NCBI GenBank assembly: GCA_964527425.1
Contig: CAZGOA010000002.1
Coordinates: forward strand, 73,346-137,345
DNA: 64,000 bases
Source: an uncultured Gammaproteobacteria bacterium
GTDB lineage: Bacteria; Patescibacteriota; Microgenomatia; UBA10105; UBA927
Direction: 5' to 3'
In this document: positions 853 to 40,431 of the stretch, one piece after another
Numbering within the stretch: the first letter of the stretch is position 1
Layout of the letters: each line of letters opens with the position of its first letter
Notes under the pieces: model-generated
What the model was told of the DNA's origin: nothing
The model's input: only the letters and a program-made list of their open reading frames with translations
The model's database searches: none
Translations under genes and position numbers: made by a program

Positions 853-3117
853 TTATTGAGCTTCAATAGATACAGATAAATTCTGCTGTCTTGAAGGCAG
901 TTTATTAGGAAATAAAGAAAGTGAAGTTTTAATAGATACACCGCCAACACCATTAATATTCTTAATAATAGATTCAGCTTCTGAAATAGATTTTCCTGCT
1001 ATTTGAGAAGTTAAATCCTTTACCTCAAAAGAAGGAATTAACTTTGCTGAGCCTGTAATGGAAATAGAAATTTCACCATTTTTTTCTACTATTGGTTCAT
1101 TCGTGTTAACCTGAATTGAATCTTGGGATAATCTATATCCTTCGGGTATTTCTGCAGACAATGCTTGATTCATAACTGCTTTAATGTCGTCTTCTTTGTA
1201 GGCTGTTCCCTTAATTAAAATAGTTGCCTTCACAGTTAATTCTTTCGCTTCTTGACCAATTTCGTGCGAAAAAGAACGTTCACTTACTTCTGATGTAATG
1301 GTATCTGATATTAACTGTTCTCCTTCACTTACACCGAATCCATTCTTTGCCTGTTCAACTAATTCTGCAGTTAATTGTTTTACCGCGTTATCTTGATCAG
1401 CCCTGCTTACAACAGTAATATCTTTACTCGTTCCCCCCGTAAATGCTTGATCGTTTCTTGCTGTAGCGATACTTGTCGCAATACCGCTAATACTAAACTC
1501 TCGTCCTGAACTAATATTACCCTGTGTACCAATCTCTTTTGCTGTAACAGTACCATTTGCTTTTCCATACGTAATTGTTCCTGCAGCTAAACTCTCACTA
1601 GCAGACGCTATAGAGATATCGTCATCGAGGAGAAAATCAACTGAACCTGCTGAAACAACAGTACCTTTTTTTATTGTCCGAGGAACCTGAGATTTATTAA
1701 AAATAGTGATAGTACCCTTAGCAGGATCTCCAATAGTTTTTTTACCGGTAACTGTAACTACCTTCTCTCCATTTATTGATTCTTCTTTTTCTAGTCCACT
1801 TACTACATCGCCACTTGTTGTTCCATTTGGTTCAATAACAAACGTTTTTTCAGCTTCAACAGTACGTGGAATAACAGTAATTGCTATTGTTGCTTTAGGA
1901 AGAACAATTGAAAAAAGTATAAATCCAACTATAACTAATAGAAGTGGTACCACCACTAACGAAACCATTTTTATCTTCTTCGATTTATTACCATTCACAC
2001 CATTTCTTTTTGTTAAAACGCCTTGTACTACGTGTTTCATTGAATGTATAAGAGGTGAAAATAGTTGAGTTATTTTGTTTTTAGACGGTTTTTTAGCAGA
2101 TTCAACTATATCCTCTTCATCTACTGGACTAAACCCAATATCCTCAGGAGTTACTGGTTCTATATTGTCATATTCTTCCTCAGGTATTGATACTTGTTCT
2201 GTTTTCAATATTTCTTCAGGAGTTTCTTGTTTAGATGAAATCACTTCATTCTGATCTACTACATCATCAGTCGCAGAATCCAAAGGAAGATTCATATCTT
2301 CTTCAACTGGAGTAGATACCGCTGAATCTTCCATGCTTTCTTCTACTTGTGTCTCGTCATTATCCACATCCATGCTTTCAATTAATTCACTTGCACCTGC
2401 ATGTGACACTGCAGCAGCAGCGCCATCCCCTGGCAAAATTTCTGCTTTTGGAAAATGAAGAAAATTCGCTTTTTGCTGCCAATGATACTGTAAAATATCT
2501 CTTTTAGCATCTTCTAGTGTATGTCTATCCGTGCCATATACTAGTATTCTTGCTGGTAGTATTTCGACATCAGTAAACGTACTTAATGCATCTTCTAAAT
2601 GACCAATCAAATTACCTTCCTTGGCAAAAACTCTTTGACCAATAAAATTGCCAACCTTGTAAAGAGTTACTGTTATCCCCTTACTTGTTATCCCCATAAG
2701 TATCATGCTAGGTGGAACACCTTCTTGTTTTTTATACTGGTGAATGATCGCCTGATAAATAGAAACAAATCCTATCGGGGTCAATTCAAGTAATTTTGTT
2801 AGTTCTTTAATGTGAGGTTTAATTTCTTTCTTAACGTCTCCATCTTCAGTTAGGTATTCGGAAGGAAAACCTAATATTACTTTATTTATATTTTCAGACT
2901 TAGTTAAATCTTCAAGCGTTGATACACATTTATCAACAGCTTCTATCCGTTCCTCCCAAGAATCACTCATCAACTCTTGTGTTACTGCTCCTTCAATAAT
3001 GGCTTCTCCTTGCTTTCCTAAAGCCCAACAGGCTGCGTCAATAGCATCAGGATATATTAAAAGTGTAAGAAAAAGCTCTTGTTGTTTATTCCTTCCACTG
3101 AATGACGGCAGTTTCAT
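853..3117 (-). CDS. Large bitopic membrane protein. It has an N-terminal cytoplasmic domain (possibly actin/ASKHA-like), an acidic D/E-rich linker, a single TM helix and a ~400 aa extracytoplasmic domain. Function unknown.
   Basis: 754 aa ORF. There is a hydrophobic helix (VSLVVVPLLLVIVGFILFSIVLP) at about residue 370, preceded by a D/E-rich low-complexity segment. I could not recognise a catalytic motif. Confidence 0.45.
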   Translation of the reverse strand: MKLPSFSGRNKQQELFLTLLIYPDAIDAACWALGKQGEAIIEGAVTQELMSDSWEERIEAVDKCVSTLEDLTKSENINKVILGFPSEYLTEDGDVKKEIKPHIKELTKLLELTPIGFVSIYQAIIHQYKKQEGVPPSMILMGITSKGITVTLYKVGNFIGQRVFAKEGNLIGHLEDALSTFTDVEILPARILVYGTDRHTLEDAKRDILQYHWQQKANFLHFPKAEILPGDGAAAAVSHAGASELIESMDVDNDETQVEESMEDSAVSTPVEEDMNLPLDSATDDVVDQNEVISSKQETPEEILKTEQVSIPEEEYDNIEPVTPEDIGFSPVDEEDIVESAKKPSKNKITQLFSPLIHSMKHVVQGVLTKRNGVNGNKSKKIKMVSLVVVPLLLVIVGFILFSIVLPKATIAITVIPRTVEAEKTFVIEPNGTTSGDVVSGLEKEESINGEKVVTVTGKKTIGDPAKGTITIFNKSQVPRTIKKGTVVSAGSVDFLLDDDISIASASESLAAGTITYGKANGTVTAKEIGTQGNISSGREFSISGIATSIATARNDQAFTGGTSKDITVVSRADQDNAVKQLTAELVEQAKNGFGVSEGEQLISDTITSEVSERSFSHEIGQEAKELTVKATILIKGTAYKEDDIKAVMNQALSAEIPEGYRLSQDSIQVNTNEPIVEKNGEISISITGSAKLIPSFEVKDLTSQIAGKSISEAESIIKNINGVGGVSIKTSLSLFPNKLPSRQQNLSVSIEAQ

Positions 3118-5786: not shown

Positions 5787-6437
5787 TTATTCAGATACTT
5801 CTGGCACAGTAATTTCTCGATTAACCTGAGTTGTTTTGCCATAGCGTGATGTTGCCGTAATTACTATAGTATTTTTACCCGGAAAAACTTGGACCTGATC
5901 AAAAAACTTACCATCGTCTCTTACCAAAACACCAATTCCATTTATAGAAACAGTTGCATCTGAATCAGTTTGACCTAATACTTCTATACGAGGAGCATTT
6001 AAGATAGTTTCATTTTCTTTCGGCTGTTCTATAACTAATGTTGGAGGTGCTTGTAAACGTTGGTATTGAACGACAAAATACCCCACAAATAATAACAGTA
6101 AAAAGGTAATGAAAAACACTATGAATCGACTTGGTGTTAATCTAATTCTAGAAGTCTGCAGTTCTTCTTCTGTTTTTTTAGGTAGTAATGCACTTTTAGA
6201 AATCTCGCGAGTCTGTCTCCGTAAAAACGCGAGAACATGCTTACTGTTTAAACCTAAAAACTCACTATAATTTTTTACAAATCCAATTGTATATGCCTGA
6301 GATTCTATTTGTTTAAATTCATCAGTTTCAAGTGCCTCTATATATCTTTTTTGTATTTTTGTTGCTTTTGCAACTTGATCTATAGTAAGACCTTTTTCAA
6401 TTCTGGTTTCTTTGAGTAATTGCCCAACTGTTTTCAT
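5787..6437 (-). CDS. rodZ: RodZ-like cytoskeletal protein (HTH_25 + TM + C-terminal domain)
   Basis: N-terminal XRE-type HTH (GLTIDQVAKATKIQKRYIEALE…FVKNYSEFLGL), then a TM helix (FIVFFITFLLLLFVGYFVV) and a C-terminal beta domain. Confidence 0.6.
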   Translation of the reverse strand: MKTVGQLLKETRIEKGLTIDQVAKATKIQKRYIEALETDEFKQIESQAYTIGFVKNYSEFLGLNSKHVLAFLRRQTREISKSALLPKKTEEELQTSRIRLTPSRFIVFFITFLLLLFVGYFVVQYQRLQAPPTLVIEQPKENETILNAPRIEVLGQTDSDATVSINGIGVLVRDDGKFFDQVQVFPGKNTIVITATSRYGKTTQVNREITVPEVSE

Positions 6438-28042: not shown

Positions 28043-29098
28043 ATGTCCAGAAAATTTCTATTCATAATAATAACGTTATTTTTGCTAATAGCTATTCCTA
28101 TTACATTTTTTGTTATGCGTCAGCAACAAGAAATTAGGAAACAAGCTGCTCCATTAACACAGTTATCCATGAGTCCCGCTCAAATCTCCAAAAATGTGGG
28201 TGATGAATTCCAGGTTCAAATTATGATCGATACGGGAACAAACCCAGTTATTCTCACCGACATGTATATTACGTATGATCCTACCAAATTACAATTTCTA
28301 AGTGCTGTAAATTCTGCAAACTTTCCGAATGAACAAACAACAATCTCAAATCCTAATGGTGCTTTTCACTACCAATTAACCACATTAAGTTTACAAACCC
28401 CATTTACAGGTACCGGACCCGTAGCAACACTACGATTTCAAGCACTTGCACCAACAACCTCACCTATAGATATTGCATTTACTGAACAAACGGGTATTTT
28501 CGGAATTCAAGAACAAAAAGTTAATTTACTCATTGGTGCTAATCCAGCAAAAGTGACAATAGGTGGAGGTGGTTCAACAATCGCACCTACACCTTCAACA
28601 ATTCCAACAACACTTACACCAACACAGCCTTCAAGTCCTTCTGGCTTACTTAATTTAACGGTAACTTCACCTGTTAACAATTCTGTAACATCCGACTCCA
28701 CACCAACTATCGTTGGGAAAGCTAATTCTGGGAGTATTATCACTATAGTATCTTCACCCACAGGATTTAATGGAAGTATAACTGCTGATACTACAGGAAA
28801 CTGGTCATTTACCCCAACACAAGCCATAAAAAACGGTACATATACTCTCACGGTTACCGCTACAAATCCCGTTTCCGGTCAAACACAATCTACAACATCA
28901 ATTATAACAATAGGTTCATCCACAATAACGCCAACTACCACACCAACTATTATTACTTCAGATACTGACACAATTGAAGAAGACACTTCTACTTCAGAAA
29001 TACCGGTAACCGGAACAATAGAAACCACATTACTCATAGCTCTAATTGGTTTAATTATGCTTCTGGGAGGAGCTGCATTGCCATTTTTTATCCGCTGA
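28043..29098 (+). CDS. Cell-surface protein. It has a signal anchor, a cohesin-like beta domain, a Thr/Pro linker, a bacterial Ig-like domain, and a C-terminal EIPVTG motif followed by a hydrophobic helix and FFIR tail (sortase-type sorting signal).
   Basis: The N-terminus has a TM/signal helix. The Ig-like segment reads SPVNNSVTSDSTPTIVGKANSGSIITIV…TGNWSFTPTQAIKNGTYTLTVTATN. The C-terminus reads SEIPVTGTIETTLLIALIGLIMLLGGAALPFFIR. Confidence 0.5.
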   Translation: MSRKFLFIIITLFLLIAIPITFFVMRQQQEIRKQAAPLTQLSMSPAQISKNVGDEFQVQIMIDTGTNPVILTDMYITYDPTKLQFLSAVNSANFPNEQTTISNPNGAFHYQLTTLSLQTPFTGTGPVATLRFQALAPTTSPIDIAFTEQTGIFGIQEQKVNLLIGANPAKVTIGGGGSTIAPTPSTIPTTLTPTQPSSPSGLLNLTVTSPVNNSVTSDSTPTIVGKANSGSIITIVSSPTGFNGSITADTTGNWSFTPTQAIKNGTYTLTVTATNPVSGQTQSTTSIITIGSSTITPTTTPTIITSDTDTIEEDTSTSEIPVTGTIETTLLIALIGLIMLLGGAALPFFIR

Positions 29099-32579: not shown

Positions 32580-33116
32580 ATGGCTGCCCAACCAGTTTCA
32601 GTTAATTTACTAGACCAACCAGAATTTGAAGGGTCTTCTGTGACGAGACTTTTCAACTGGGCTGTTACCTATGGTCGATATATTATGATTGGAACGGAAG
32701 TTATTGTGTTGTTGGCTTTTATTTCACGATTCAGTCTCGATAGAAAACTCACAGATCTAAGAGAAGAAATTGCCCAAAAACAAATAATCCTTGAAGCAAA
32801 TAAAAATTTTGAGGAAGAAATTAAACAACTGCAAACAAACATACTCACAGTAAATAGCCTTATTGAAACCCAGCGAATACCTCTTGATATTTTTAACCAG
32901 GTAATTTCCATTTTACCTCCCGACATAATCTTACTTTCGTATAAACAGGAGGATATAAATATTGAACTTAAATTATTAGCCGGTACGACAAATAGTTTTT
33001 CCATTTTCTTAAATAGTATTCAAAGAATACCGTCACTTTCAGGAATAGAAATAACAGAAATAAGAAAAGATGCACTAAGAGGTACAGAATTTAGAATTAT
33101 TGCAAAAATACAATAA
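32580..33116 (+). CDS. PilN-like type IV pilus assembly protein (bitopic)
   Basis: Short cytoplasmic N-terminus with a VNLLDQPEF segment (compare the PilN INLLP motif), a single TM, and a coiled-coil plus periplasmic domain. Confidence 0.35.
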   Translation: MAAQPVSVNLLDQPEFEGSSVTRLFNWAVTYGRYIMIGTEVIVLLAFISRFSLDRKLTDLREEIAQKQIILEANKNFEEEIKQLQTNILTVNSLIETQRIPLDIFNQVISILPPDIILLSYKQEDINIELKLLAGTTNSFSIFLNSIQRIPSLSGIEITEIRKDALRGTEFRIIAKIQ

Positions 33117-33780
33117 TATGGATCAACCAAATAAATCTCAATCAGTATTATCATTCAGGAGATACTCAAAACCGCTTGAACCCTTAATCACTAAACCTCA
33201 AAACAGAGTGTATACAGCCACAATTCTCTCTTTTTTGGTAGTGTCACTATTTTTATGGTATGCAATCAGACCTACTATTCAAACAATTCTTTCATTAAGA
33301 AGAGAAATAATTGACAATACAGAAGTCAGCAAACTCATGGAAGAAAAAATTAGCGCACTCGTTGAAGCTCAAGCAGTGTATCAAGAAATAAGCGCAGATC
33401 TTCCAATGCTGTATGAAGCGTTACCATCAAAACCAGAGCCAATGAGTGCTTTATTAACACTCCGTACTCTAGTATCAGAGTCGGGAGCATCTATTTCTGC
33501 AATTAACCTGCCACAAGTTGATTTGCTAAATTCCGAATCTACTTCTTCTGGTCAAAAACCTGATGATATACCTAATACTCTTCTTACTATTCATGTTGAC
33601 GGATCATATACAAATTTAAAAACATTCCTTAATCAAGTAATGAATCTTAGACGGATTATGTCTATACAGTCCCTTTTTATTACCACATCTGTAGAAAGCG
33701 AAAACTCGTCAATTGATCCTACTCTTCGTCTTATACTAAAGTTAAAACTACATCATAATCCCAAAGGAGCATCATCATGA
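33100..33780 (+). CDS. PilO-like type IV pilus assembly protein (bitopic)
   Basis: Cytoplasmic N-terminus, a TM (ATILSFLVVSLFLWYAI), a coiled coil and a C-terminal domain. It overlaps the upstream PilN-like gene. Confidence 0.35.
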   Translation: MQKYNNMDQPNKSQSVLSFRRYSKPLEPLITKPQNRVYTATILSFLVVSLFLWYAIRPTIQTILSLRREIIDNTEVSKLMEEKISALVEAQAVYQEISADLPMLYEALPSKPEPMSALLTLRTLVSESGASISAINLPQVDLLNSESTSSGQKPDDIPNTLLTIHVDGSYTNLKTFLNQVMNLRRIMSIQSLFITTSVESENSSIDPTLRLILKLKLHHNPKGASS

Positions 33781-33995
33781 ATGTAGAAGAAAGTGACCGA
33801 GATTTATTACTCGTTTCAATTTTTACATTTTTAACTGTTTTATCGTGGGTGTTCTTTGAGCTGGTAAAGACTATAAAAACAACTACAGTAAAGGCTCCAG
33901 TTCAGGAAATCATTAAACCGTTGAACCCGACTATAGATACTGCAATACTTGATACATTAAGAGAAAGAAAATCATATTTTCCAGTCAATGAATAA
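33777..33995 (+). CDS. Small membrane protein in the surface operon
   Basis: 72 aa with one TM (LLVSIFTFLTVLSWVFF). It is translationally coupled on both sides. Confidence 0.3.
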   Translation: MNVEESDRDLLLVSIFTFLTVLSWVFFELVKTIKTTTVKAPVQEIIKPLNPTIDTAILDTLRERKSYFPVNE

Positions 33996-35286
33996 ACCAA
34001 TAAGAATCCCTACTATTTTCGCACTCCTCTTCGTAGGAGTTCTTCTCTTAACAATGACATGGATTACTAAAATAATTTCACAGCCAACACAAGCAGACGT
34101 AGGTAAACTTCCTAAAGATATTCAAGTAACAAATGTGTCAGACACATCGTTCACAGTACTCTGGATTACAGAAAAACCAACACGTGGAGTAATCCAAGTA
34201 ACTCCTCCAGATGGTCAAGCATTAACGTTTTATGATGATCATGCAGTGCAATCCCAAAATCAAGAATTTACGACTCATAGCGTAACTGTACGGGGCATGC
34301 AAGCACTCACACAATACACCATCACGTTTCTAAATACTCCAGACAAAACACTTACTATAACGACAGGACCAACGCTTTCACTTAATTCAAATCAATTAGG
34401 TCCTCTCCATGGCTCAGTAAAAAATTCAGATGGAACACCTGCAGTAGGCTCTTTAGTCTATCTTGCTTTAGAAGGAAGCCAAATACTTTCAACGACAGTA
34501 AAGGATTCAGGAAGTTTTCTCATCCCTCTTAATTTATTACGAACAGAAGATACTACCGCATATCTACCTGTTAAAGAAGAACCACTACCTGTTACTCTCA
34601 CGATTATATCTCCAACAGGAGAAAAAACCATAGCAACAACAAATACAGATAACGACTCTCCAGTTCCCGATATAACTTTAGGCCAACCAAACGACTTTAC
34701 ACAATCATCTGTAAAACCAACTCCTGTACTTGCTGAAAAACAATCATCGTTTCAATCCGTACTCGGTACAATAAATACAACAGCAGTAGCTTCTTCTAGT
34801 GTAACTCTGGCAACACCGATTCAAGGAGGAATAGTACGGAGTGAATATCCGTTTATTACTGGCAAAGGTATTCCAGATGAAATAGTAACAATTATTATAG
34901 GAAGCAAAAGTCCTACTGTTGATACTGTACGAGTTAAAAAAGATGGAACCTGGCAATTTACACCAAAAAAAGGCATACCAGCAGGAAACCAAAGTGTTAC
35001 TATCTCTTCGTTTGATGAAAATAAAAATCCAATTTCTATAACGCACCTGTTTCAAATTATGAAAAGTGGTACTCAAGTACTCGGTGATGCAACTCCGTCC
35101 GCAAGTCCAACAATAATTCTTCCAACCCCAATAAGCACAATTAGCGCAACACCAATCCCCACCTTGCTAATAGAACCTACTCCTACAACCGAAATTCCCA
35201 CAACAGCAACGACAGTACCTACCTATATCTTATTAGCAGCAGGAATATCATTAAGTATTATCGGATTACTTGTTTTTATACTGTAA
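33988..35286 (+). CDS. Surface protein. It has an N-terminal signal anchor, an FN3-like domain, a bacterial Ig-like domain and a C-terminal TM anchor.
   Basis: FN3-like segment: VTNVSDTSFTVLWITEKPTRGVIQV…YTITF. Ig-like segment: IVTIIIGSKSPTVDTVRVKKDGTWQFTPKK. C-terminus: …TEIPTTATTVPTYILLAAGISLSIIGLLVFIL. Confidence 0.5.
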   Translation: MNKPIRIPTIFALLFVGVLLLTMTWITKIISQPTQADVGKLPKDIQVTNVSDTSFTVLWITEKPTRGVIQVTPPDGQALTFYDDHAVQSQNQEFTTHSVTVRGMQALTQYTITFLNTPDKTLTITTGPTLSLNSNQLGPLHGSVKNSDGTPAVGSLVYLALEGSQILSTTVKDSGSFLIPLNLLRTEDTTAYLPVKEEPLPVTLTIISPTGEKTIATTNTDNDSPVPDITLGQPNDFTQSSVKPTPVLAEKQSSFQSVLGTINTTAVASSSVTLATPIQGGIVRSEYPFITGKGIPDEIVTIIIGSKSPTVDTVRVKKDGTWQFTPKKGIPAGNQSVTISSFDENKNPISITHLFQIMKSGTQVLGDATPSASPTIILPTPISTISATPIPTLLIEPTPTTEIPTTATTVPTYILLAAGISLSIIGLLVFIL

Positions 35287-35377: not shown

Positions 35378-36850
35378 ATGGATTTATACGATCAAGCACA
35401 AAAAAATAATGAACCACAATCATCAGATCTGCCTGATCTCTCCTCACTCATGTCACCACCACAAGATAGTCAACCAGTTCAAACCCAACCTCCTCCACCA
35501 CAAATTGAACCTATTTCTGCATTGGATGTTCCCGTAACCCCGCCAATTTCTGATCAACCGACAGTAGATACACCACCAGTACAATCCGCAACGCCTGACA
35601 TTTCGCCTTTACCAACATCTGTTCCACCTATTGCTAATCCAGAAACACCCATGCCCACTCCACAAGAAGTAAAACCCACAGATCTTGCTTCAGAAGCTGT
35701 AATATCGAATTCACCTGATGCCAATACTTTACCTACACCAGATTCCTCCAAGCCAGATACTGTGGCAAACACACCAGATACCCAAACATTTATGCACATG
35801 AGTGATATACCCCGTGACACAGTTCCCTCTTCTCCTGTAACCGAAACAGTCCCATCTCCAGCACCACTGGATAATTCACCACCTAATACTACCCCTCCAG
35901 TACCACCAAATGCAGCGACACCATCCAAAAAGTTCACAATGGGAAGAGGAATTCTCTTTGCAGTACTTGCTCTAGCGATACTTACCCTTCCTGTCATTGG
36001 ATTTTTTGTAACACGACCCAATTCTCAAACAGATACGCGTACCCAAGCTGCAATAAGCAATTGTGCGATCCCTGGCGATCCAGATTGTGATATAACATCA
36101 CCAACTAACACTCCTCCAAGTAGCACATCTAATTCTGCCACAACCCCCGCTACGCAAACACAAACGGTACAATCGCAAGCCGGCTGTAGTTCTTTAGGGA
36201 ATCCATGTGAAAACAACGGCTGCTGTACTGGACTAGTCTGTCAGGGAAATACCGGCAATCGTGTATGTCAACAGCCAGCAACAACTCCTGATCAATGGTG
36301 TGGGGGAACACCCGGTTCTTGTGGCAGACTAATAGCTTTCCATTGCAATAGTGATTTCCCAAGTGGAACACCCGAATCAGGTTGTTTTGATAATCCAATT
36401 TATATCCAAAATAATGATGCAGCAGGCTGGGCTCAGGCACGTGCACATGTTGCCGGCTGTGGTCAAATAGACGTCGTTTGTAAAAGTGGCCCTAAAGAAA
36501 ACCAATTATGTGGAGATTTCGAAATTTTCAAAGATAATTGTGGTCCTGGCTCACAACCGACACCTATTCCAATATCTCAATGTAGAAATTTAAAAATTTA
36601 TCGTGATGGTATAGTTGTAAAAACTAAAGATTACAATACTCTTCGACCACAACAACAAATTCAGTTCGCAGTTGTATCAAACCAAGAGGCAGCACGAGCT
36701 CGATTTTACATTAACGGTAAAGATCCAGTCATATCGACAGAAAAAAATGAAAATGGTGAATTTTTTATTAACTGGGAAATACCAGAAGTAGGTAGTCAGA
36801 GGACATTTACAGTACAAGCAGAAGTTCGAATAAATGGAGTTTGGCAATAA
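35378..36850 (+). CDS. Bitopic surface protein of an unrecognised family, paralogous to 37885-38391 at both the N- and C-terminal modules
   Basis: N-terminal DLPDLSSLMSPPQD motif and a Pro-rich cytoplasmic region. A TM at about residue 195. Cys-rich extracytoplasmic region (GCSSLGNPCENNGCCTGLVCQGN…). C-terminal beta domain ending …RINGVWQ. Confidence 0.5.
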   Translation: MDLYDQAQKNNEPQSSDLPDLSSLMSPPQDSQPVQTQPPPPQIEPISALDVPVTPPISDQPTVDTPPVQSATPDISPLPTSVPPIANPETPMPTPQEVKPTDLASEAVISNSPDANTLPTPDSSKPDTVANTPDTQTFMHMSDIPRDTVPSSPVTETVPSPAPLDNSPPNTTPPVPPNAATPSKKFTMGRGILFAVLALAILTLPVIGFFVTRPNSQTDTRTQAAISNCAIPGDPDCDITSPTNTPPSSTSNSATTPATQTQTVQSQAGCSSLGNPCENNGCCTGLVCQGNTGNRVCQQPATTPDQWCGGTPGSCGRLIAFHCNSDFPSGTPESGCFDNPIYIQNNDAAGWAQARAHVAGCGQIDVVCKSGPKENQLCGDFEIFKDNCGPGSQPTPIPISQCRNLKIYRDGIVVKTKDYNTLRPQQQIQFAVVSNQEAARARFYINGKDPVISTEKNENGEFFINWEIPEVGSQRTFTVQAEVRINGVWQ

Positions 36851-37880
36851 TATGAAAAACATTTCAAAATTCGCTGTGACTCTTGGCTTATTAATTACTT
36901 CTCTATTAATTGCAACGACGGCAGTATTAGTAATTCAATTAAGAAACCGTCAGGCAATAACAGATTTACCACCTGAGGCCGCAGTTGATGCGTGTAAAAT
37001 AGTATTTACGATTGATCCGGTGTGCAAAACTGACTTTACCCTCCTTCCTCCTGAGTCACCAGAAAATACACCAACACCTTCCGTTTTACCAACCGTAACA
37101 ATTTCACCACAATGCACAAGTGCGTGTGATCCTGCAGGAAGAAACCAGCAGTGTCCAACAAATCACAGCTGCGCACCAGCAAACCATCCTAATGCTAATA
37201 CCTGCATATTAACTGCATGTGTACAAAATCCTGATCTTTGTAACAGCACAAGCTGCTCACTATTACCAACACCGCCTTCAACTAATACACCCACCCCACA
37301 AGCTACTAACACTCCAACAGTACGTGCAACAAATACACCGATAAATACACCGACAAATACACAAATTCCTCCAACAAACACTATTGCATCCACTAGTACA
37401 CCAAATCCAACCGCAACACCAAATCCTTTATGCGGATCATCATGCGATCCTGATGGGTCAAGCAATCAATGTCCATCGAATCATACCTGTGCACCAGATA
37501 GTCATCCAAATGCCAATACCTGTATTCTCACTTCGTGTGTACAAAATCCAAGCCTATGCTCAAATAACAGCTGCACAGTCCTCCCAACACCAACAGCTGT
37601 ACGTACGTCAACACCGACTCAACCAATTGCATACTCACCGTCATCTACGCCCATACCAGGCTCATGTAATGCTAACTGTTCGACAGATAGTAATTGTGCA
37701 AACAACTTAGTATGCTCAGGTGGTACGTGCCGCAACCCAGAATGCACTGAGCAAGCTAATTGTTCATGCTCGATACAGCCAACGCCAGAAATTCCTGTAA
37801 CAGGCACAGGAACTACTCTAGTAGGTATTGGTATAATTGTTGGAGGAATACTACTCTTACTGTTAGGATTAGCATTTTAA
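36834..37880 (+). CDS. Cysteine-rich repeat surface protein with a C-terminal EIPVTG sorting signal
   Basis: N-terminal signal anchor. Two ~55 aa 8-Cys repeats (CxxxCDPxGxxxQCPxNHxCAPxxHPNANTCILTxCVQNPxLC) and a third degenerate Cys-rich module. The C-terminus reads PEIPVTGTGTTLVGIGIIVGGILLLLLGLAF. Confidence 0.5.
   Translation: MEFGNNMKNISKFAVTLGLLITSLLIATTAVLVIQLRNRQAITDLPPEAAVDACKIVFTIDPVCKTDFTLLPPESPENTPTPSVLPTVTISPQCTSACDPAGRNQQCPTNHSCAPANHPNANTCILTACVQNPDLCNSTSCSLLPTPPSTNTPTPQATNTPTVRATNTPINTPTNTQIPPTNTIASTSTPNPTATPNPLCGSSCDPDGSSNQCPSNHTCAPDSHPNANTCILTSCVQNPSLCSNNSCTVLPTPTAVRTSTPTQPIAYSPSSTPIPGSCNANCSTDSNCANNLVCSGGTCRNPECTEQANCSCSIQPTPEIPVTGTGTTLVGIGIIVGGILLLLLGLAF
37114..37598 (+). 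repeat. Intragenic duplicated ~165-nt module encoding the 8-Cys domain, two copies at about 37114-37278 and 37431-37598
   Basis: The two nucleotide segments are roughly 75% identical. Compare tgcacaagtgcgtgtgatcctgcaggaag… with tgcggatcatcatgcgatcctgatgggtc…, and …aatacctgcatattaactgcatgtgtacaaaatcc… with …aatacctgtattctcacttcgtgtgtacaaaatcc…. Confidence 0.7.
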
Positions 37881-37884
37881 CACT

Positions 37885-38391
37885 ATGAATACACAGCCAA
37901 ACAACCAAGATTTTCCAGACCTATCAATACTTATGAATACACAACCGGTTCATGATCCGACGCCACCACCAAGTCATGCACAAAAAAAGCGCTCACCAAT
38001 ACTAGGGTTGTCTATCCTGCTACTCATCTTATTTTTTGGTGCAACTAGTGCTATTCTCATCTGGCAAACTCAATCAAGAGAAACTATTGCACGAGTTGAA
38101 ACACAAGCCGAAGAACCCACTGATACAGTGCCAAAATCCTGTAAACGTCTGACCATTTATAAAGATGGAGTCGCTGTAACTGACTATAATACACTTAGAG
38201 CTGGTGACACTGTAACCTTAGCTACTCCCATTGGTTCTGCAGTTAAAGCGAGATTTACTATTAATAAAACAGAGGTAGAATCGACAAAAGTTACCTTTAA
38301 TAATGAGTTCATCGTTGACTATACATTCCCCTTGGATATGCGTGCCGTTCGTATCAAGGTAGAGCGAAAAATAGATGGCATCTGGCAATAA
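37885..38391 (+). CDS. Small bitopic surface protein, paralogue of 35378-36850
   Basis: N-terminal DFPDLSILMNTQP motif. TM (ILGLSILLLILFFGATSAILIW). C-terminal domain CKRLTIYKDGVAVTDYNTLRAGD…KIDGIWQ, alignable with the C-terminus of the 490 aa protein. Confidence 0.5.
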   Translation: MNTQPNNQDFPDLSILMNTQPVHDPTPPPSHAQKKRSPILGLSILLLILFFGATSAILIWQTQSRETIARVETQAEEPTDTVPKSCKRLTIYKDGVAVTDYNTLRAGDTVTLATPIGSAVKARFTINKTEVESTKVTFNNEFIVDYTFPLDMRAVRIKVERKIDGIWQ

Positions 38392-38474: not shown

Positions 38475-39395
38475 ATGATTTCTTTTGTTTATAAACGAGC
38501 CCATGATACTGTTCCCCAAACCAGAGATGAATTTACTTATGGTGCATGGGTACATGTAGAATCTCCAACAAATGAAGACCTTATATATTTAAGTGATACC
38601 TTTAACTTAGAAAAAAGCTTGTTAACCGATGCATTAGATATCAACGAAGTTCCTCGTATTGAACAAGAAGAAGGTGCCATTTACCTGTTTACCCGCTTTG
38701 TGGTATCTCAAAAAGATAGAGTATTCACAACTCCTGTATTAATTATCTATAGAAAGAAAGTCATTATAACTATTGCTCCCAAAACTGTCCCTCAGGTTAA
38801 TGCCATCATGTCTCAAAAAGGAAACTGGAGTACCTATGACACAGAAGGGTTTGTGCTATTACTCCTCTCTACCTTAAACACTACAGTTGAGCGTTCATTA
38901 AATACCATCTCACGACTCATACAACAATCTAAAATAAAAGCAGAACGAATAGGTACAAAAGAACTATTATTTTTAGTAGATATGGAAAACAGTTTATATG
39001 ACATTAATGGACTTCTAGTACGTTTAGAAAATTTAGTGTCTACTCTCCTGTCTAAGTCATGGTTAAAACGTACAGAAGAACAAGAAGAAATATTAAAAGA
39101 TATTTACTTAGCAATTCAGCAAATGCTAGATATCGTTAAAGAAAATATCAGAACGGTCGTAAATACCCGCGATGCAGTATCAACAATAATGACTGCTAAT
39201 CTTAACCGCGTCATCAAACTCTTTACCTCACTGACGGTCTTGTTAACTGTCCCAATGCTTGTAGCTACATTTTATGGAATGAATGTCACGTTACCGTTGT
39301 CTCAATCTCCTACCGCATTTGTAACGATCATAATGGGTACAATAATCGTATCTTTAGGACTACTTATTTTATTTGTTAAAAATGATTGGTTGTAG
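38475..39395 (+). CDS. corA: CorA-family magnesium/cobalt transporter
   Basis: Cytoplasmic N-domain and two C-terminal TM helices with the YGMN signature (LVATFYGMNVTLP). Confidence 0.7.
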   Translation: MISFVYKRAHDTVPQTRDEFTYGAWVHVESPTNEDLIYLSDTFNLEKSLLTDALDINEVPRIEQEEGAIYLFTRFVVSQKDRVFTTPVLIIYRKKVIITIAPKTVPQVNAIMSQKGNWSTYDTEGFVLLLLSTLNTTVERSLNTISRLIQQSKIKAERIGTKELLFLVDMENSLYDINGLLVRLENLVSTLLSKSWLKRTEEQEEILKDIYLAIQQMLDIVKENIRTVVNTRDAVSTIMTANLNRVIKLFTSLTVLLTVPMLVATFYGMNVTLPLSQSPTAFVTIIMGTIIVSLGLLILFVKNDWL

Positions 39396-40431
39396 CAGAA
39401 AAAGAAGCTTCTATATATGCACGTAACGCTTCTGAAGAATTAATTGGTATCAAGACATATTTCCCCTCATAAAGTCTTTCTTCAGGATGAATAAGTTGTG
39501 ATTCAAGAGATACTTTCTGAAACGATAACACATTACGATTCTGCAGAAATAATCTAATAAACTGTAATATGTCATCCGTTTGCACGTCGGTTATTATGCG
39601 ATTAAGCAGAATGTAATAAAGTTTAGAAACTCGCTCAGCAGAATACCAATCTATCGGATTTTTTAATTTTGATAACACAGCTTCTATCAATTCTTCTTGT
39701 CTTCTTGCACGCGCAAAATCTGTACCCTCATCGCCACTTGCATGCCTGCTTCGAACATATTGTAAAGCTCTTTCTCCATCCATTATTTGATTGCCTGATT
39801 CAAAATTGATTGTTTGATACCGACATCTAAATAATGGATCTCCATTGCATGTATCATTCTCTTTTCCTGCGATTGGAAACTGATTATCAATAAATGGTGT
39901 AGTTACATTTACAGACACACCACCCAATACATTAATAGCCTCTTGAAATGCTTCAAAATCGATAAGAAGAGTGTAATGAACAGGTATACCTGTAATTTCT
40001 TTAATAATCTCTTTGGTAAATCCAATGCCCCCACCTGTGCGTCCTTGAACATTGCCATAATAATATGCAGTATTTATGCGATCTCTTAACGTATCAGACC
40101 AAAGATCCCTGGGAATCGGTAAGATGATTGATCGCTGTGCTCTATTGGTCGATAACGAAATTATTTGAATAGTATCAGTTAAATCAGATCCTTCATGTTG
40201 TTTGCCGCCAATACCTAATAACAATATATTTATTCTTCCATTATGCTGTTGTATCGAATCAGATTTAAGATGAAGGTAGAGATCCAGTATACTTAAACCT
40301 ACAGATTGTAATAGTAGTACTGAGGCAATACTAAATAATAATAGACCAACGACTACACTCATAATACCACTTAAGAAAAGCAGTTTACCTATGCGTCGTT
40401 GTTTAAAAGGCTTCTTGGGATTCATGATCAT
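39376..40431 (-). CDS. LytR-CpsA-Psr (LCP) family cell-wall glycopolymer ligase
   Basis: N-terminal TM and an LCP domain (…INILLLGIGGKQHEGSDLTDTIQIISLS…RDLW…). Confidence 0.75.
   Translation of the reverse strand: MIMNPKKPFKQRRIGKLLFLSGIMSVVVGLLLFSIASVLLLQSVGLSILDLYLHLKSDSIQQHNGRINILLLGIGGKQHEGSDLTDTIQIISLSTNRAQRSIILPIPRDLWSDTLRDRINTAYYYGNVQGRTGGGIGFTKEIIKEITGIPVHYTLLIDFEAFQEAINVLGGVSVNVTTPFIDNQFPIAGKENDTCNGDPLFRCRYQTINFESGNQIMDGERALQYVRSRHASGDEGTDFARARRQEELIEAVLSKLKNPIDWYSAERVSKLYYILLNRIITDVQTDDILQFIRLFLQNRNVLSFQKVSLESQLIHPEERLYEGKYVLIPINSSEALRAYIEASFSATTNHF

Follow-up and report, generated by a model that had tools for sequence, protein, structure and literature searches.

A490 and C168, two proteins encoded in the stretch of 64,000 nucleotides analysed here (the window), are true paralogs as judged from their sequences, and they belong to a large and so far unnamed family of N-in bitopic envelope proteins that will be called the A-family. 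The module that terminates both proteins is proposed, with somewhat more confidence than doubt, to dock through an intermolecular disulfide on a short element of a third protein, B348, whose gene lies between theirs. CPR/Patescibacteria represent a large share of bacterial diversity and live in attachment to other cells. For most of their conserved envelope genes, the annotation is 'hypothetical'. To our knowledge, the architecture of their envelope is essentially unknown. Starting from a pair of such genes, the analysis arrives at a defined family that comprises hundreds of clusters and is encoded in a conserved gene block linked to PilN/PilO.

The A490 and C168 paralogs

The open reading frames of A490 (490 aa, 35378..36850, + strand; orthologues P0004-P0009) and C168 (168 aa, 37885..38391, + strand) were recovered exactly as they had been noted in the first-pass annotation, which considered them as a paralogous pair. 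Pairwise BLASTP bears this out, since both alignments are significant: the C-terminal stretches share 36/100 identities (36%, E=9e-15) and the N-terminal stretches NNEPQSSDLPDLSSLM of A490 and NTQPNNQDFPDLSILM of C168 share 15/32 identities (E=1e-4). Across all six reading frames of the 64 kb window, the patterns P[DE]L[ST]..[LM]M, YNTL[RK] and G[VI]WQ-stop were confined to these two proteins, and exactly two copies of the module were found in the window by tblastn and HMM. Moreover, both shared elements are kept in orthologues with only 35-65% overall identity, which indicates that the similarity of the pair is not due to chance.

Hydropathy revealed a single hydrophobic segment in each protein, at aa 191-211 of A490 (35948..36010, + strand) and at aa 39-60 of C168 (37999..38064, + strand). 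In both, a K/R cluster is located on the N-terminal side of the transmembrane segment (TM) while every Cys is located on its C-terminal side with none before, and because of this placement the two proteins fit an N-in bitopic topology. The previously suggested arrangement, namely one TM, a common cytoplasmic peptide and a common extracytoplasmic C-terminal module, is therefore retained.

A490 is composed of a cytoplasmic tail (aa 1-190), the TM, a Cys-rich ectodomain and the C-terminal module. The ectodomain contains a conserved core with 12 invariant Cys, CCxGLVCQG...GCGQIDxVC...LCGDF (36179..36553, + strand). C168 is reduced to one of the cytoplasmic motifs described below, the TM, a 25 aa linker and the module. 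The region between the two ends of A490 had been described as a Pro-rich and Cys-rich insert. The Cys-rich part is indeed exposed outside, but the Pro-rich part precedes the TM and is cytoplasmic. Nor is the middle region an insertion in the long copy: it was rather lost from the short one. The long form is ancestral and universal, and the C168-type short form is a clade-restricted derivative devoid of the middle.

A large family in Microgenomates

A profile search for the C-terminal module, a check that the first-pass annotation had put forward, was carried out exhaustively and returned 589 cluster representatives (E<=1e-3), or 176 with the stricter threshold of E<=1e-10, and in essentially all of them the module is C-terminal. 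The size of the family is taken from this search, a word-indexed homology search giving only 3 and 9 matches. The family occurs in Microgenomates-type Patescibacteria, namely Gottesmanbacteria, Woesebacteria and related groups. A GTDB scan based on the alignment of full-length long-type proteins yielded 4 loci and a metagenome scan at least 4 loci. No description of the family was found in the literature on PilN/PilO, sortase and disulfides in Patescibacteria/Microgenomates or on Gottesmanbacteria pili.

Among 107 long members, the architecture consists of cytoplasmic peptide motifs, a Pro-rich linker, the TM, a variable Cys-rich ectodomain and the module in last position. Alignments place motif 1, M.DDILDAAQKAINDAA, at the extreme N-terminus of 76/107 long members and 0/8 short ones; A490 carries a degenerate version, MDLYDQAQKNN (35378..35410, + strand), and C168 lacks it. 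Motif 2, a cytoplasmic short linear motif of the PDLSxLM type, reads DLPDLSSLM in A490 (35426..35452, + strand) and DFPDLSILM in C168 (37909..37935, + strand). It had been regarded as a conserved cytoplasmic tag, but it is not the main one of the family: motif 2 is present in only 16/107 long members as well as in 5/8 short-type proteins, being decayed or absent in the other short ones. PDLSxLM is, on this count, a second motif specific to a subclade, and M.DDILDAAQKAINDAA is the dominant one.

The Cys-rich middles of the family are variable, with gain and loss of whole modules.

Several classes of envelope proteins were considered for A490 and C168 and rejected. Pilin, lipoprotein (lipobox), sortase substrate, thioester-domain and anti-sigma assignments were ruled out by sequence features and by zero Pfam/NCBIfam matches. 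For instance, the class III signal peptide of type IV pilins and pseudopilins does not agree with the 190 aa that precede the TM in A490, and no G-F/M-x-x-x-E was found at either TM. In the same way, both proteins end in a soluble module, which does not correspond to an LPXTG-type sortase substrate. As for a thioester-domain (TED) adhesin, only the terminal Gln is a candidate, most members have K, R or H in its place, and the domain is a small Ig-like sandwich. Finally, membership in the PilP/GspC HR-domain family was discarded, homology of the beta-sandwich not being found.

The C-terminal module

The module spans aa 402-490 of A490 (36581..36847, + strand) and aa 86-168 of C168 (38140..38388, + strand). 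It proved to be an Ig/FN3-like beta-sandwich of ~85-90 aa that is always located at the extreme C-terminus. An invariant Cys, which is the first residue of the module in A490 (the unpaired Cys402), opens it at the first strand, just after a Pro/Thr-rich linker and at the edge of the Ig-like domain, and the module closes with a conserved NG.W[KRQH]. Both proteins match the family profile (8e-26 for A490 and 6e-23 for C168, profile search and HMM) and end with G[VI]WQ-stop.

In A490, C168 and 10 further members, no Pfam/NCBIfam model matched the module, and fn3, Big_x, PKD and CarboxypepD_reg remained below the gathering threshold. Searching the PDB with a sequence profile of the module likewise returned nothing (best E=1.3). 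Among the weak structural neighbours of the module are CBM56, CBM48 and beta-GRP, a beta-glucan-binding domain. The first-pass annotation had envisaged that the shared end might turn out to be a generic Ig domain, an outcome that would speak against its reading. This holds at the level of the fold; at the sequence level the module forms a distinct family outside Pfam/NCBIfam. Unlike generic Ig-like, FN3-like or CBM modules (Big_x, fn3, PKD, CBM56/48), it is always the last domain, ends with NG.W[KRQH] and carries a partnerless Cys.

Gene block and neighbourhood

The A-family gene is part of a six-gene block that is seen in the window and in loci L002, L003, L005-L013, L015 and L016. In the window, all its genes are on the + strand. 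It starts with a PilN-like bitopic protein (32580..33116; PF05137, 22.2 bits, just under the cut-off of 22.8) carrying an N-terminal VNLL, a PilM-binding-type motif. This gene is found in every locus covering the position and the INLL-type motif is conserved in 11 loci. It is followed by a PilO-like bitopic protein (33100..33780; PF04350, 33.1 bits, above the cut-off of 22), present in all covering loci, by a single-TM protein of ~70 aa (72 aa in the window, 33777..33995) and by an anchored fn3/Ig protein of ~430 aa. The latter, D432 in the window (33988..35286), has a signal/anchor, fn3/Ig-like domains, an IPTTA motif with a C-terminal TM and zero Cys. The A-family and B-type genes complete the block. 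A490 occupies the A-family position before B, whereas C168 is encoded after B. The A490, B348 and C168 genes are almost contiguous, with gaps of 1 nt (counted from the ATG at 36852) and 4 nt and no terminator inside.

The conserved linkage of A and B to the PilN/PilO-like scaffold speaks for a functional connection but is not absolute, as locus L001 contains A and B while the PilN/PilO-like genes are absent from the available 6 kb upstream. A Pfam survey of ~38 further ORFs of the window revealed no PilM, FtsA, PilB, PilC or PilT. A conserved LCP (LytR-CpsA-Psr) gene adjoins the block, and a sortase gene is located at 154-849 of the window. Sortase is near-ubiquitous in Microgenomates and disulfide machinery of the MdbA/VKOR type is enriched in CPR bacteria (PMC6744442). 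B348, D432 and the protein encoded at 28043 all end with an xPxTG-like motif and a hydrophobic segment.

B-type proteins and covariation with the module

B348 (36834..37880, + strand, with a likely true start at the ATG at 36852) is composed of an N-terminal signal/anchor, two CxPhixF elements, three 8-Cys modules, an IPVTG motif and a C-terminal TM. The element of B-type proteins is a short strand-like C[KTE]-Phi-x-F-[ST]-Phi located near the N-terminus, and it carries a partnerless Cys. In B348, the first putative docking element, CKIVFTI (36993..37013, + strand), corresponds to the one universally conserved in B-type proteins. The second, CKTDFTL (37023..37043, + strand), is a tandem duplicate that is found only in loci encoding two module proteins. 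The two element Cys are separated by 9 residues and each opens a strand-like segment. At the other end, the sorting-signal-like IPVTG with its hydrophobic segment (37791..37877, + strand) is devoid of the basic tail of canonical sortase substrates, which makes wall anchoring of B348 uncertain.

Module number equals B element number without exception across ~12 operons, a base that includes two independent duplication events only. One element accompanies one module protein in 9 loci (L001, L006-L011, L015 and L016/17), and two elements accompany two modules in 3 (the window, L002 and L005). Two elements are also present in L003 and L013/14, the contigs of which stop short of the position of the short paralog. 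The second module arose in two independent ways, as a short copy downstream of B in the clade of the window and as a tandem full-length copy upstream of B in L005. The two L005 copies are almost identical, so an assembly artefact is possible at this locus. The duplication covers the whole 7-residue element and not merely its Cys (CKVTFTI...CKVTFRL in L013). Moreover, for P0267, a window-like B with one element, the short paralog was predicted to be absent and was found to be so; in L015, B is directly followed by CorA.

Cysteine parity

The number of Cys after the TM is odd in 117/119 full-length A-family proteins, over a range from 1 to 73 (binomial p=2e-32). Cys before the TM are lacking in 118/119, and 101/119 have exactly one Cys within the last 100 aa. 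The invariant Cys of the module is thus left without a partner in its own chain. A490 contains 17 extracytoplasmic Cys and C168 a single one, Cys86; in short paralogs, the module Cys is the sole Cys. In the same way, the Cys count is odd in 113/114 full-length B-type proteins, six of which carry only the element Cys, and the sole even one is B348 of the window (26 Cys). The PilN-like, PilO-like, ~70 aa and D432 proteins have zero Cys, with the exception of one D432-type ORF in L012 (2 Cys). In the other proteins of the window, parity is at a background of ~50:50.

A proposed disulfide-locked tether and competing explanations

The first-pass annotation had postulated a common partner outside the membrane, and Cys parity together with the co-duplication of the elements points to B348 as a concrete candidate. 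We lean towards the view that each module docks on one B element, B348 being the shared outer partner. After export and oxidative folding, the module would dock on the element and be locked by an intermolecular disulfide, with A490 Cys402, C168 Cys86 and B348 Cys54 and Cys64 as the predicted participants. As there is one module per element, B348 would be held twice at the membrane in this genome, with A490 as the long anchor and C168 as the minimal one. Its other end is probably fixed to the wall by sortase, given the IPVTG-plus-TM sorting signal, or else would stay in the membrane. The A-B complex would then tether the membrane covalently to the surface, in association with the PilN/PilO-like scaffold. 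It would also offer a clean case of stoichiometric co-evolution, in which docking sites are duplicated with their ligands, and a clue to the role of orphan PilN/PilO-like proteins in organisms without outer membrane.

The same unpaired Cys may instead join two modules to each other in the manner of an antibody hinge. A locus with a single gene would then yield a homodimer and the window an A490-C168 heterodimer, the element Cys of B pairing elsewhere or, when there are two, in cis with its neighbour. The hinge-like position of the invariant Cys, where a Pro/Thr-rich linker meets the edge of the Ig-like domain, would suit such a dimer. The counts of the window (17+1 and 26) are compatible with it, and parity is equally satisfied by A490 pairing with C168 while the two element Cys of B348 pair mutually. 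We nevertheless regard it as rather unlikely, because the universal unpaired Cys of B would be left partnerless in one-copy genomes; 113/114 B-type proteins are odd and some have it as sole Cys. Moreover, the duplication of a whole strand-like element, twice and independently, is unexplained where the gain of a single Cys would do, and the cis bond would be awkward across the 9 residues between the element Cys of the window if a hairpin forms.

A role of the lone Cys other than a protein-protein disulfide appears improbable. It could bind a metal, sense redox state, become covalently attached to a wall or lipid component or act as a nucleophile, with A and B proteins being alike only as substrates of the same modifying enzyme. 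The similar strand-like C-x-Phi-x-Phi context in both families might be a recognition motif, and the conserved LCP gene adjoins the block. However, there is no lipobox context, the Cys being far from the signal-anchor, and the signature of thioester domains is absent, with a terminal Gln that varies between members and a fold that is simply a sandwich. Nor does such a role predict the one-to-one and two-to-two match of modules and elements. Very little probability is given to the module being an adhesin or carbohydrate-binding domain of the Ig/CBM type that recognises some shared ligand outside the cell, for instance on a host, while the N-terminal tag would dock the cytoplasmic ends of the PilN/PilO-like proteins. 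The weak resemblance to CBM56, CBM48 and beta-GRP, the conserved operon linkage to PilN/PilO-like genes and the variable Cys-rich middles, whose whole-module gain and loss recall host-interaction proteins, are consistent with it.

Relation to known systems and cytoplasmic contacts

Like PilP/GspC (HR-domain) of the alignment complexes of type IV pili and type II secretion, A-family proteins are membrane-tethered, are encoded with PilN/PilO(-like) genes and combine a disordered Pro-rich segment with a small C-terminal beta-sandwich, which in PilP/GspC binds the next outer component. They also share with PilN, in the PilN-PilM pair, and with FtsN-FtsA and RodZ-MreB, the succession of a short conserved cytoplasmic N-terminal peptide, a TM and an extracytoplasmic domain. 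On the contrary, their motifs DDILDAAQKAINDAA and PDLSxLM differ from INLLP and are carried at the end of a Pro-rich tail of 30-190 aa. By analogy with the N-terminus of PilN, which inserts into PilM, motifs 1 (DDILDAAQK-like) and 2 probably recruit a cytoplasmic partner, acting as short linear motifs at the end of the disordered tail. Since C168 retains motif 2 alone, the two anchors would share one cytoplasmic contact and differ in the other.

The exported Cys-rich proteins, the extracytoplasmic disulfides, the xPxTG-like neighbours and the sortase of the window are reminiscent of sortase-anchored surface proteins of Gram-positive bacteria and of MdbA-dependent folding in Actinomyces and Corynebacterium. 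Unlike the substrates of these systems, A490 and C168 have no sorting signal and end with ...GVWQ and ...GIWQ. In addition, disulfides are intramolecular in sortase/MdbA systems and subunits are joined by isopeptide bonds, whereas the bond proposed here is an intermolecular disulfide that links a membrane protein to an anchored one.

More tentatively, the block might encode an unrecognised envelope-spanning assembly of Microgenomates. The PilN/PilO-like scaffold would hold the A-family protein, the cytoplasmic motifs would recruit an intracellular partner and the module would capture the N-terminal strand of a wall-anchored B through strand docking secured by a disulfide, and evolution would have matched the docking strands of B to the anchors in number. 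If so, this would represent a principle of covalent membrane-to-wall coupling undescribed for any bacterial envelope, and the assembly could be, in monoderm CPR bacteria, the equivalent of the PilP-PilQ link or the base of a structure for host attachment.

Finally, the TM region of A490 is conserved as LPVIGFF...Q..ADTR.RA, and the juxtamembrane stretch TRPNSQTDTRTQAA directly follows the TM (36011-36052, + strand). The conserved Q..ADTR.RA after the TM could be a processing site, and cleavage at this point would leave the ectodomain no longer joined to the cytoplasmic tail.

A family of membrane proteins with a shared C-terminal module

Two forward-strand ORFs, A490 (35378..36850, 490 aa) and C168 (37885..38391, 168 aa), encode a paralogous pair, in agreement with the first-pass annotation. 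In pairwise BLASTP their C-termini align with 36/100 identities (E=9e-15) and their N-termini with 15/32 (E=1e-4), the D.PDLS.LM peptide included. A six-frame scan of the window found P[DE]L[ST]..[LM]M, YNTL[RK] and G[VI]WQ-stop confined to these ORFs, and tblastn and HMM searches agree on exactly two copies of the C-terminal ~85 aa module in the 64 kb. Each protein has a sole hydrophobic segment (aa 191-211 in A490, aa 39-60 in C168), with basic residues on its N-terminal side and all cysteines on its C-terminal side, so that a bitopic topology with the N-terminus inside is a reasonable reading. Between them lies a third ORF, B348 (36834..37880). An in-frame ATG of B348 follows the A490 stop after 1 nt and the ATG of C168 follows the B348 stop after 4 nt; within the gene block, no terminator-like site exceeded the shuffled-sequence level.

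Neither paralog has a match in Pfam or NCBIfam, and a word-indexed search returned 3 relatives for C168 and 9 for A490. A profile search of the kind proposed in the first-pass annotation, run exhaustively with the module alignment (A2), uncovered a large family: 589 cluster representatives match at E<=1e-3, and 176 of these at E<=1e-10. In virtually every one the module terminates at the final residue of the protein. Source annotations call these proteins only hypothetical and assign them to Patescibacteria group bacterium, Candidatus Gottesmanbacteria and Candidatus Woesebacteria. Ten further members gave no Pfam match apart from one Hint domain within the variable middle, and no description of the family was found in the literature searched.

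The 150 best of the 589 matches display a stereotyped architecture. They begin with a motif at the extreme N-terminus, M[AP]DDILDAAQKAINDAA(K), and continue with 30-200 aa of Pro-rich tail, a patch rich in K, a single TM and a juxtamembrane Q..Q.AD[IT]R.RA; then come a Cys-rich middle of highly variable length, a Pro/Thr linker and the module itself, which is delimited by an invariant Cys at its start and NG.W[KRQH] at its end. An AF2 model of the module built on an 8-sequence alignment is confident and all-beta (pLDDT 87.8), and Foldseek returned nothing at E<=1e-3. The module is therefore an ordinary Ig/FN3-like sandwich by fold, yet by sequence it forms a distinct family. The PilP and GspC HR domains were considered for the module, and neither is among its structural neighbours.

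The ectodomain middles gain and lose whole modules, even between very close relatives, as seen in the middle region of A490 and in P0005, P0006, P0009 and P0073, the last of which carries the Hint domain. For instance, P0005 is 94% identical to A490 across the aligned part (46% of A490) and is nevertheless 146 aa longer. Turnover of this sort is what surface proteins under diversifying pressure typically show. In addition, the post-TM motif Q..Q.(A)[DE][IT]R.[RKQ]A of the A-family proteins (36011-36052 and 38065-38109) is seen again in the Big_13 protein encoded at 28043-29098 (aa ~25-40, FFVMRQQQEIRKQAAP) and, beyond these, in exported proteins that are unrelated, P0010 among them. A processing or recognition site characteristic of the lineage is one possible role.

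Cytoplasmic motifs and origin of the short form

The extreme N-terminal peptide (motif 1, consensus MADDILDAAQKAINDAAK) is found in 76/107 long members, and MDLYDQAQKNN of A490 is a degenerate version of it. The PDLSxLM peptide (motif 2; DLPDLSSLM in A490), initially taken as a conserved cytoplasmic tag, is present in only 16/107 and is therefore a subclade feature, not the main tag. Carried on a Pro-rich tail that is disordered, both peptides have the behaviour of short linear motifs; a putative cytoplasmic partner could be a PilM-like protein or the N-termini of the PilN/PilO-like proteins. Short one-Cys proteins resembling C168 are rare, at 8/115 among the full-length members that were scored. 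Seven of these are mutual nearest neighbours when modules are compared; motif 1 is missing from all eight and motif 2 is retained in five. The short form is therefore derived, a duplicate from which motif 1, the greater part of the cytoplasmic tail and the entire Cys-rich region have been lost. The middle of A490, first described as an insert of the long copy, is thus a region lost from the short one.

A lone cysteine in the module and in its neighbour

The first strand of the module contains an invariant single cysteine, ...[QS]C.N[IL]K[IL]Y..., which is the only cysteine of C168. Among 119 full-length, single-TM family members, the number of cysteines after the TM ranges from 1 to 73 and is odd in 117 (binomial p=2e-32); 118 have none before the TM and 101 have exactly one within the last 100 residues. 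The variable middles always add an even number of cysteines, and the module cysteine is thus left unpaired within its own chain. Other window proteins are split roughly 50:50 in cysteine parity. In all loci the PilN-like, PilO-like and ~70 aa proteins encoded upstream lack cysteine, as do proteins of the D432 type (the ~430 aa anchored fn3/Ig protein of the window), except one L012 ORF with 2.

The B-type proteins, a family of 255 database matches to which B348 belongs, present the same parity. Their cysteine count is odd in 113/114 full-length members, six of which have a single one, and the lone cysteine always lies shortly past the N-terminal signal or anchor, in a conserved element of strand-like character, C[KTE]-Phi-x-F-[ST]-Phi. 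The only even-count protein is B348 itself (26 Cys), because its element is tandemly duplicated (DACKIVFTIDPVCKTDFTLL).

Co-duplication of modules and elements

For all loci, an HMM was used to count modules and a pattern to count elements. Two modules accompany two elements in the window (A490 and C168), in L002 (long and short) and in L005 (two tandem long copies). Two elements are likewise present in L003 and L013/14, whose contigs stop inside B, ahead of the short-paralog position; L004, from the same sample as L013, holds the end of B, a short paralog and CorA. One module goes with one element in L001, L006, L007, L008, L009, L010, L011, L015 and L016/17, and there is no mismatch among the loci tabulated. 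L015 encodes a window-like B (P0267) with one element and was predicted to be without a short paralog; indeed none lies between B and CorA.

When the PilO-like, D432 and ~70 aa proteins are compared in a neighbour-joining tree, one clade comprises the window, L002, L003 and L013, with the one-to-one locus L015 as its sister, and L005 is placed elsewhere, amid one-to-one lineages. The extra copy of L005 also differs in type, being full-length and located upstream of B. Coupled gain of a module protein and an element therefore arose at least twice. The tandem genes of L005 (7647-8882 and 8885-10123) are identical save for the first few residues, next to a B with two elements. Gene conversion or a duplication of very recent date would account for this, an assembly artefact being a less probable source.

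A putative disulfide-linked tether

The simplest account of these patterns is an intermolecular disulfide between module cysteines (Cys402 of A490, Cys86 of C168) and element cysteines (Cys54 and Cys64 of B348), each element receiving one module. A490 and C168 would then share B348 as their extracytoplasmic partner in this genome, which strengthens and names the shared outer partner proposed in the first-pass annotation. The IPVTG and TM at the C-terminus of B suggest that a sortase attaches it to the wall or that it stays in the membrane, and the complex may constitute a covalent tether running from the cytoplasmic tail across the membrane to the surface layer. The main rival is that the two modules pair with each other while both element cysteines of B348 are bonded in cis. 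This is consistent with cysteine parity in the window, but it explains neither the lone cysteine of B in the many one-copy genomes nor the duplication of the whole element. A role of the lone cysteine in non-disulfide chemistry is less likely, as is plain ligand binding by the module.

The family, the lone-cysteine pattern and the co-duplication pattern appear undescribed in the literature searched.

Gene block and neighbourhood

In every fetched locus covering the region, the A-family gene has the same four genes upstream and a B-type gene downstream (window, L002, L003, L005-L013, L015, L016/17). The upstream genes encode a PilN-like protein (PF05137 slightly below threshold, N-terminus conserved and of the INLL type), a PilO-like protein (for which PF04350 exceeds its threshold), a single-TM protein of 64-72 aa and a ~430 aa protein that combines fn3/Ig-like domains with an xPxTG-like motif and TM at its C-terminus. 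Wider synteny includes a Big_13 protein, GH39, MurJ and S20 upstream and (CorA), LytR-CpsA-Psr, UvrD and FemAB downstream. The sole deviating locus is L001, where A and B are present and the PilN/PilO-like genes are absent from the 6 kb available upstream. The linkage, strict elsewhere, suggests that the A-B complex belongs to one membrane assembly with the PilN/PilO-like proteins.

The 64 kb window encodes no pilus ATPase or platform protein and no PilM, PilB, PilC or PilT, yet the PilN/PilO-like pair (32580-33780) keeps an INLL-type PilM-binding motif in 11/11 loci. The pair either serves a pilus machine encoded elsewhere or has been re-purposed as a scaffold of the envelope block.

A sortase is encoded at 154-849 on the reverse strand, adjoining a 754 aa protein (853-3117) with no Pfam match. 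Three envelope proteins end in [IV]P.[T]G/A and a hydrophobic segment: B348 (37791-37877), D432 (35194-35283) and the 28043 protein (~29000-29095). The basic tail is missing from the first two and the third finishes with a single Arg; these endings may represent a sorting signal of variant form in Microgenomates.

Directly downstream of the block, a LytR-CpsA-Psr gene (39376-40431, reverse strand) is conserved in syntenic loci, and B-type proteins contain long linkers rich in Pro and Thr; this makes it possible that LCP glycosylates an anchored protein here, as has been described for Actinomyces. A RodZ-like bitopic protein adjoining FtsK (5787-6437, reverse strand) consists of HTH_25, a TM and a beta domain resembling Glucodextran_B. 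Its overall layout is that of the A-family, in which a TM separates a cytoplasmic contact module from an outer beta domain. Finally, the GTDB loci L005-L007 (CAZVTT01, CAYNJY01, CAYNWD01) are titled uncultured Gammaproteobacteria and have the gene content and synteny of Patescibacteria/Microgenomates; these MAGs are probably mislabelled submissions.
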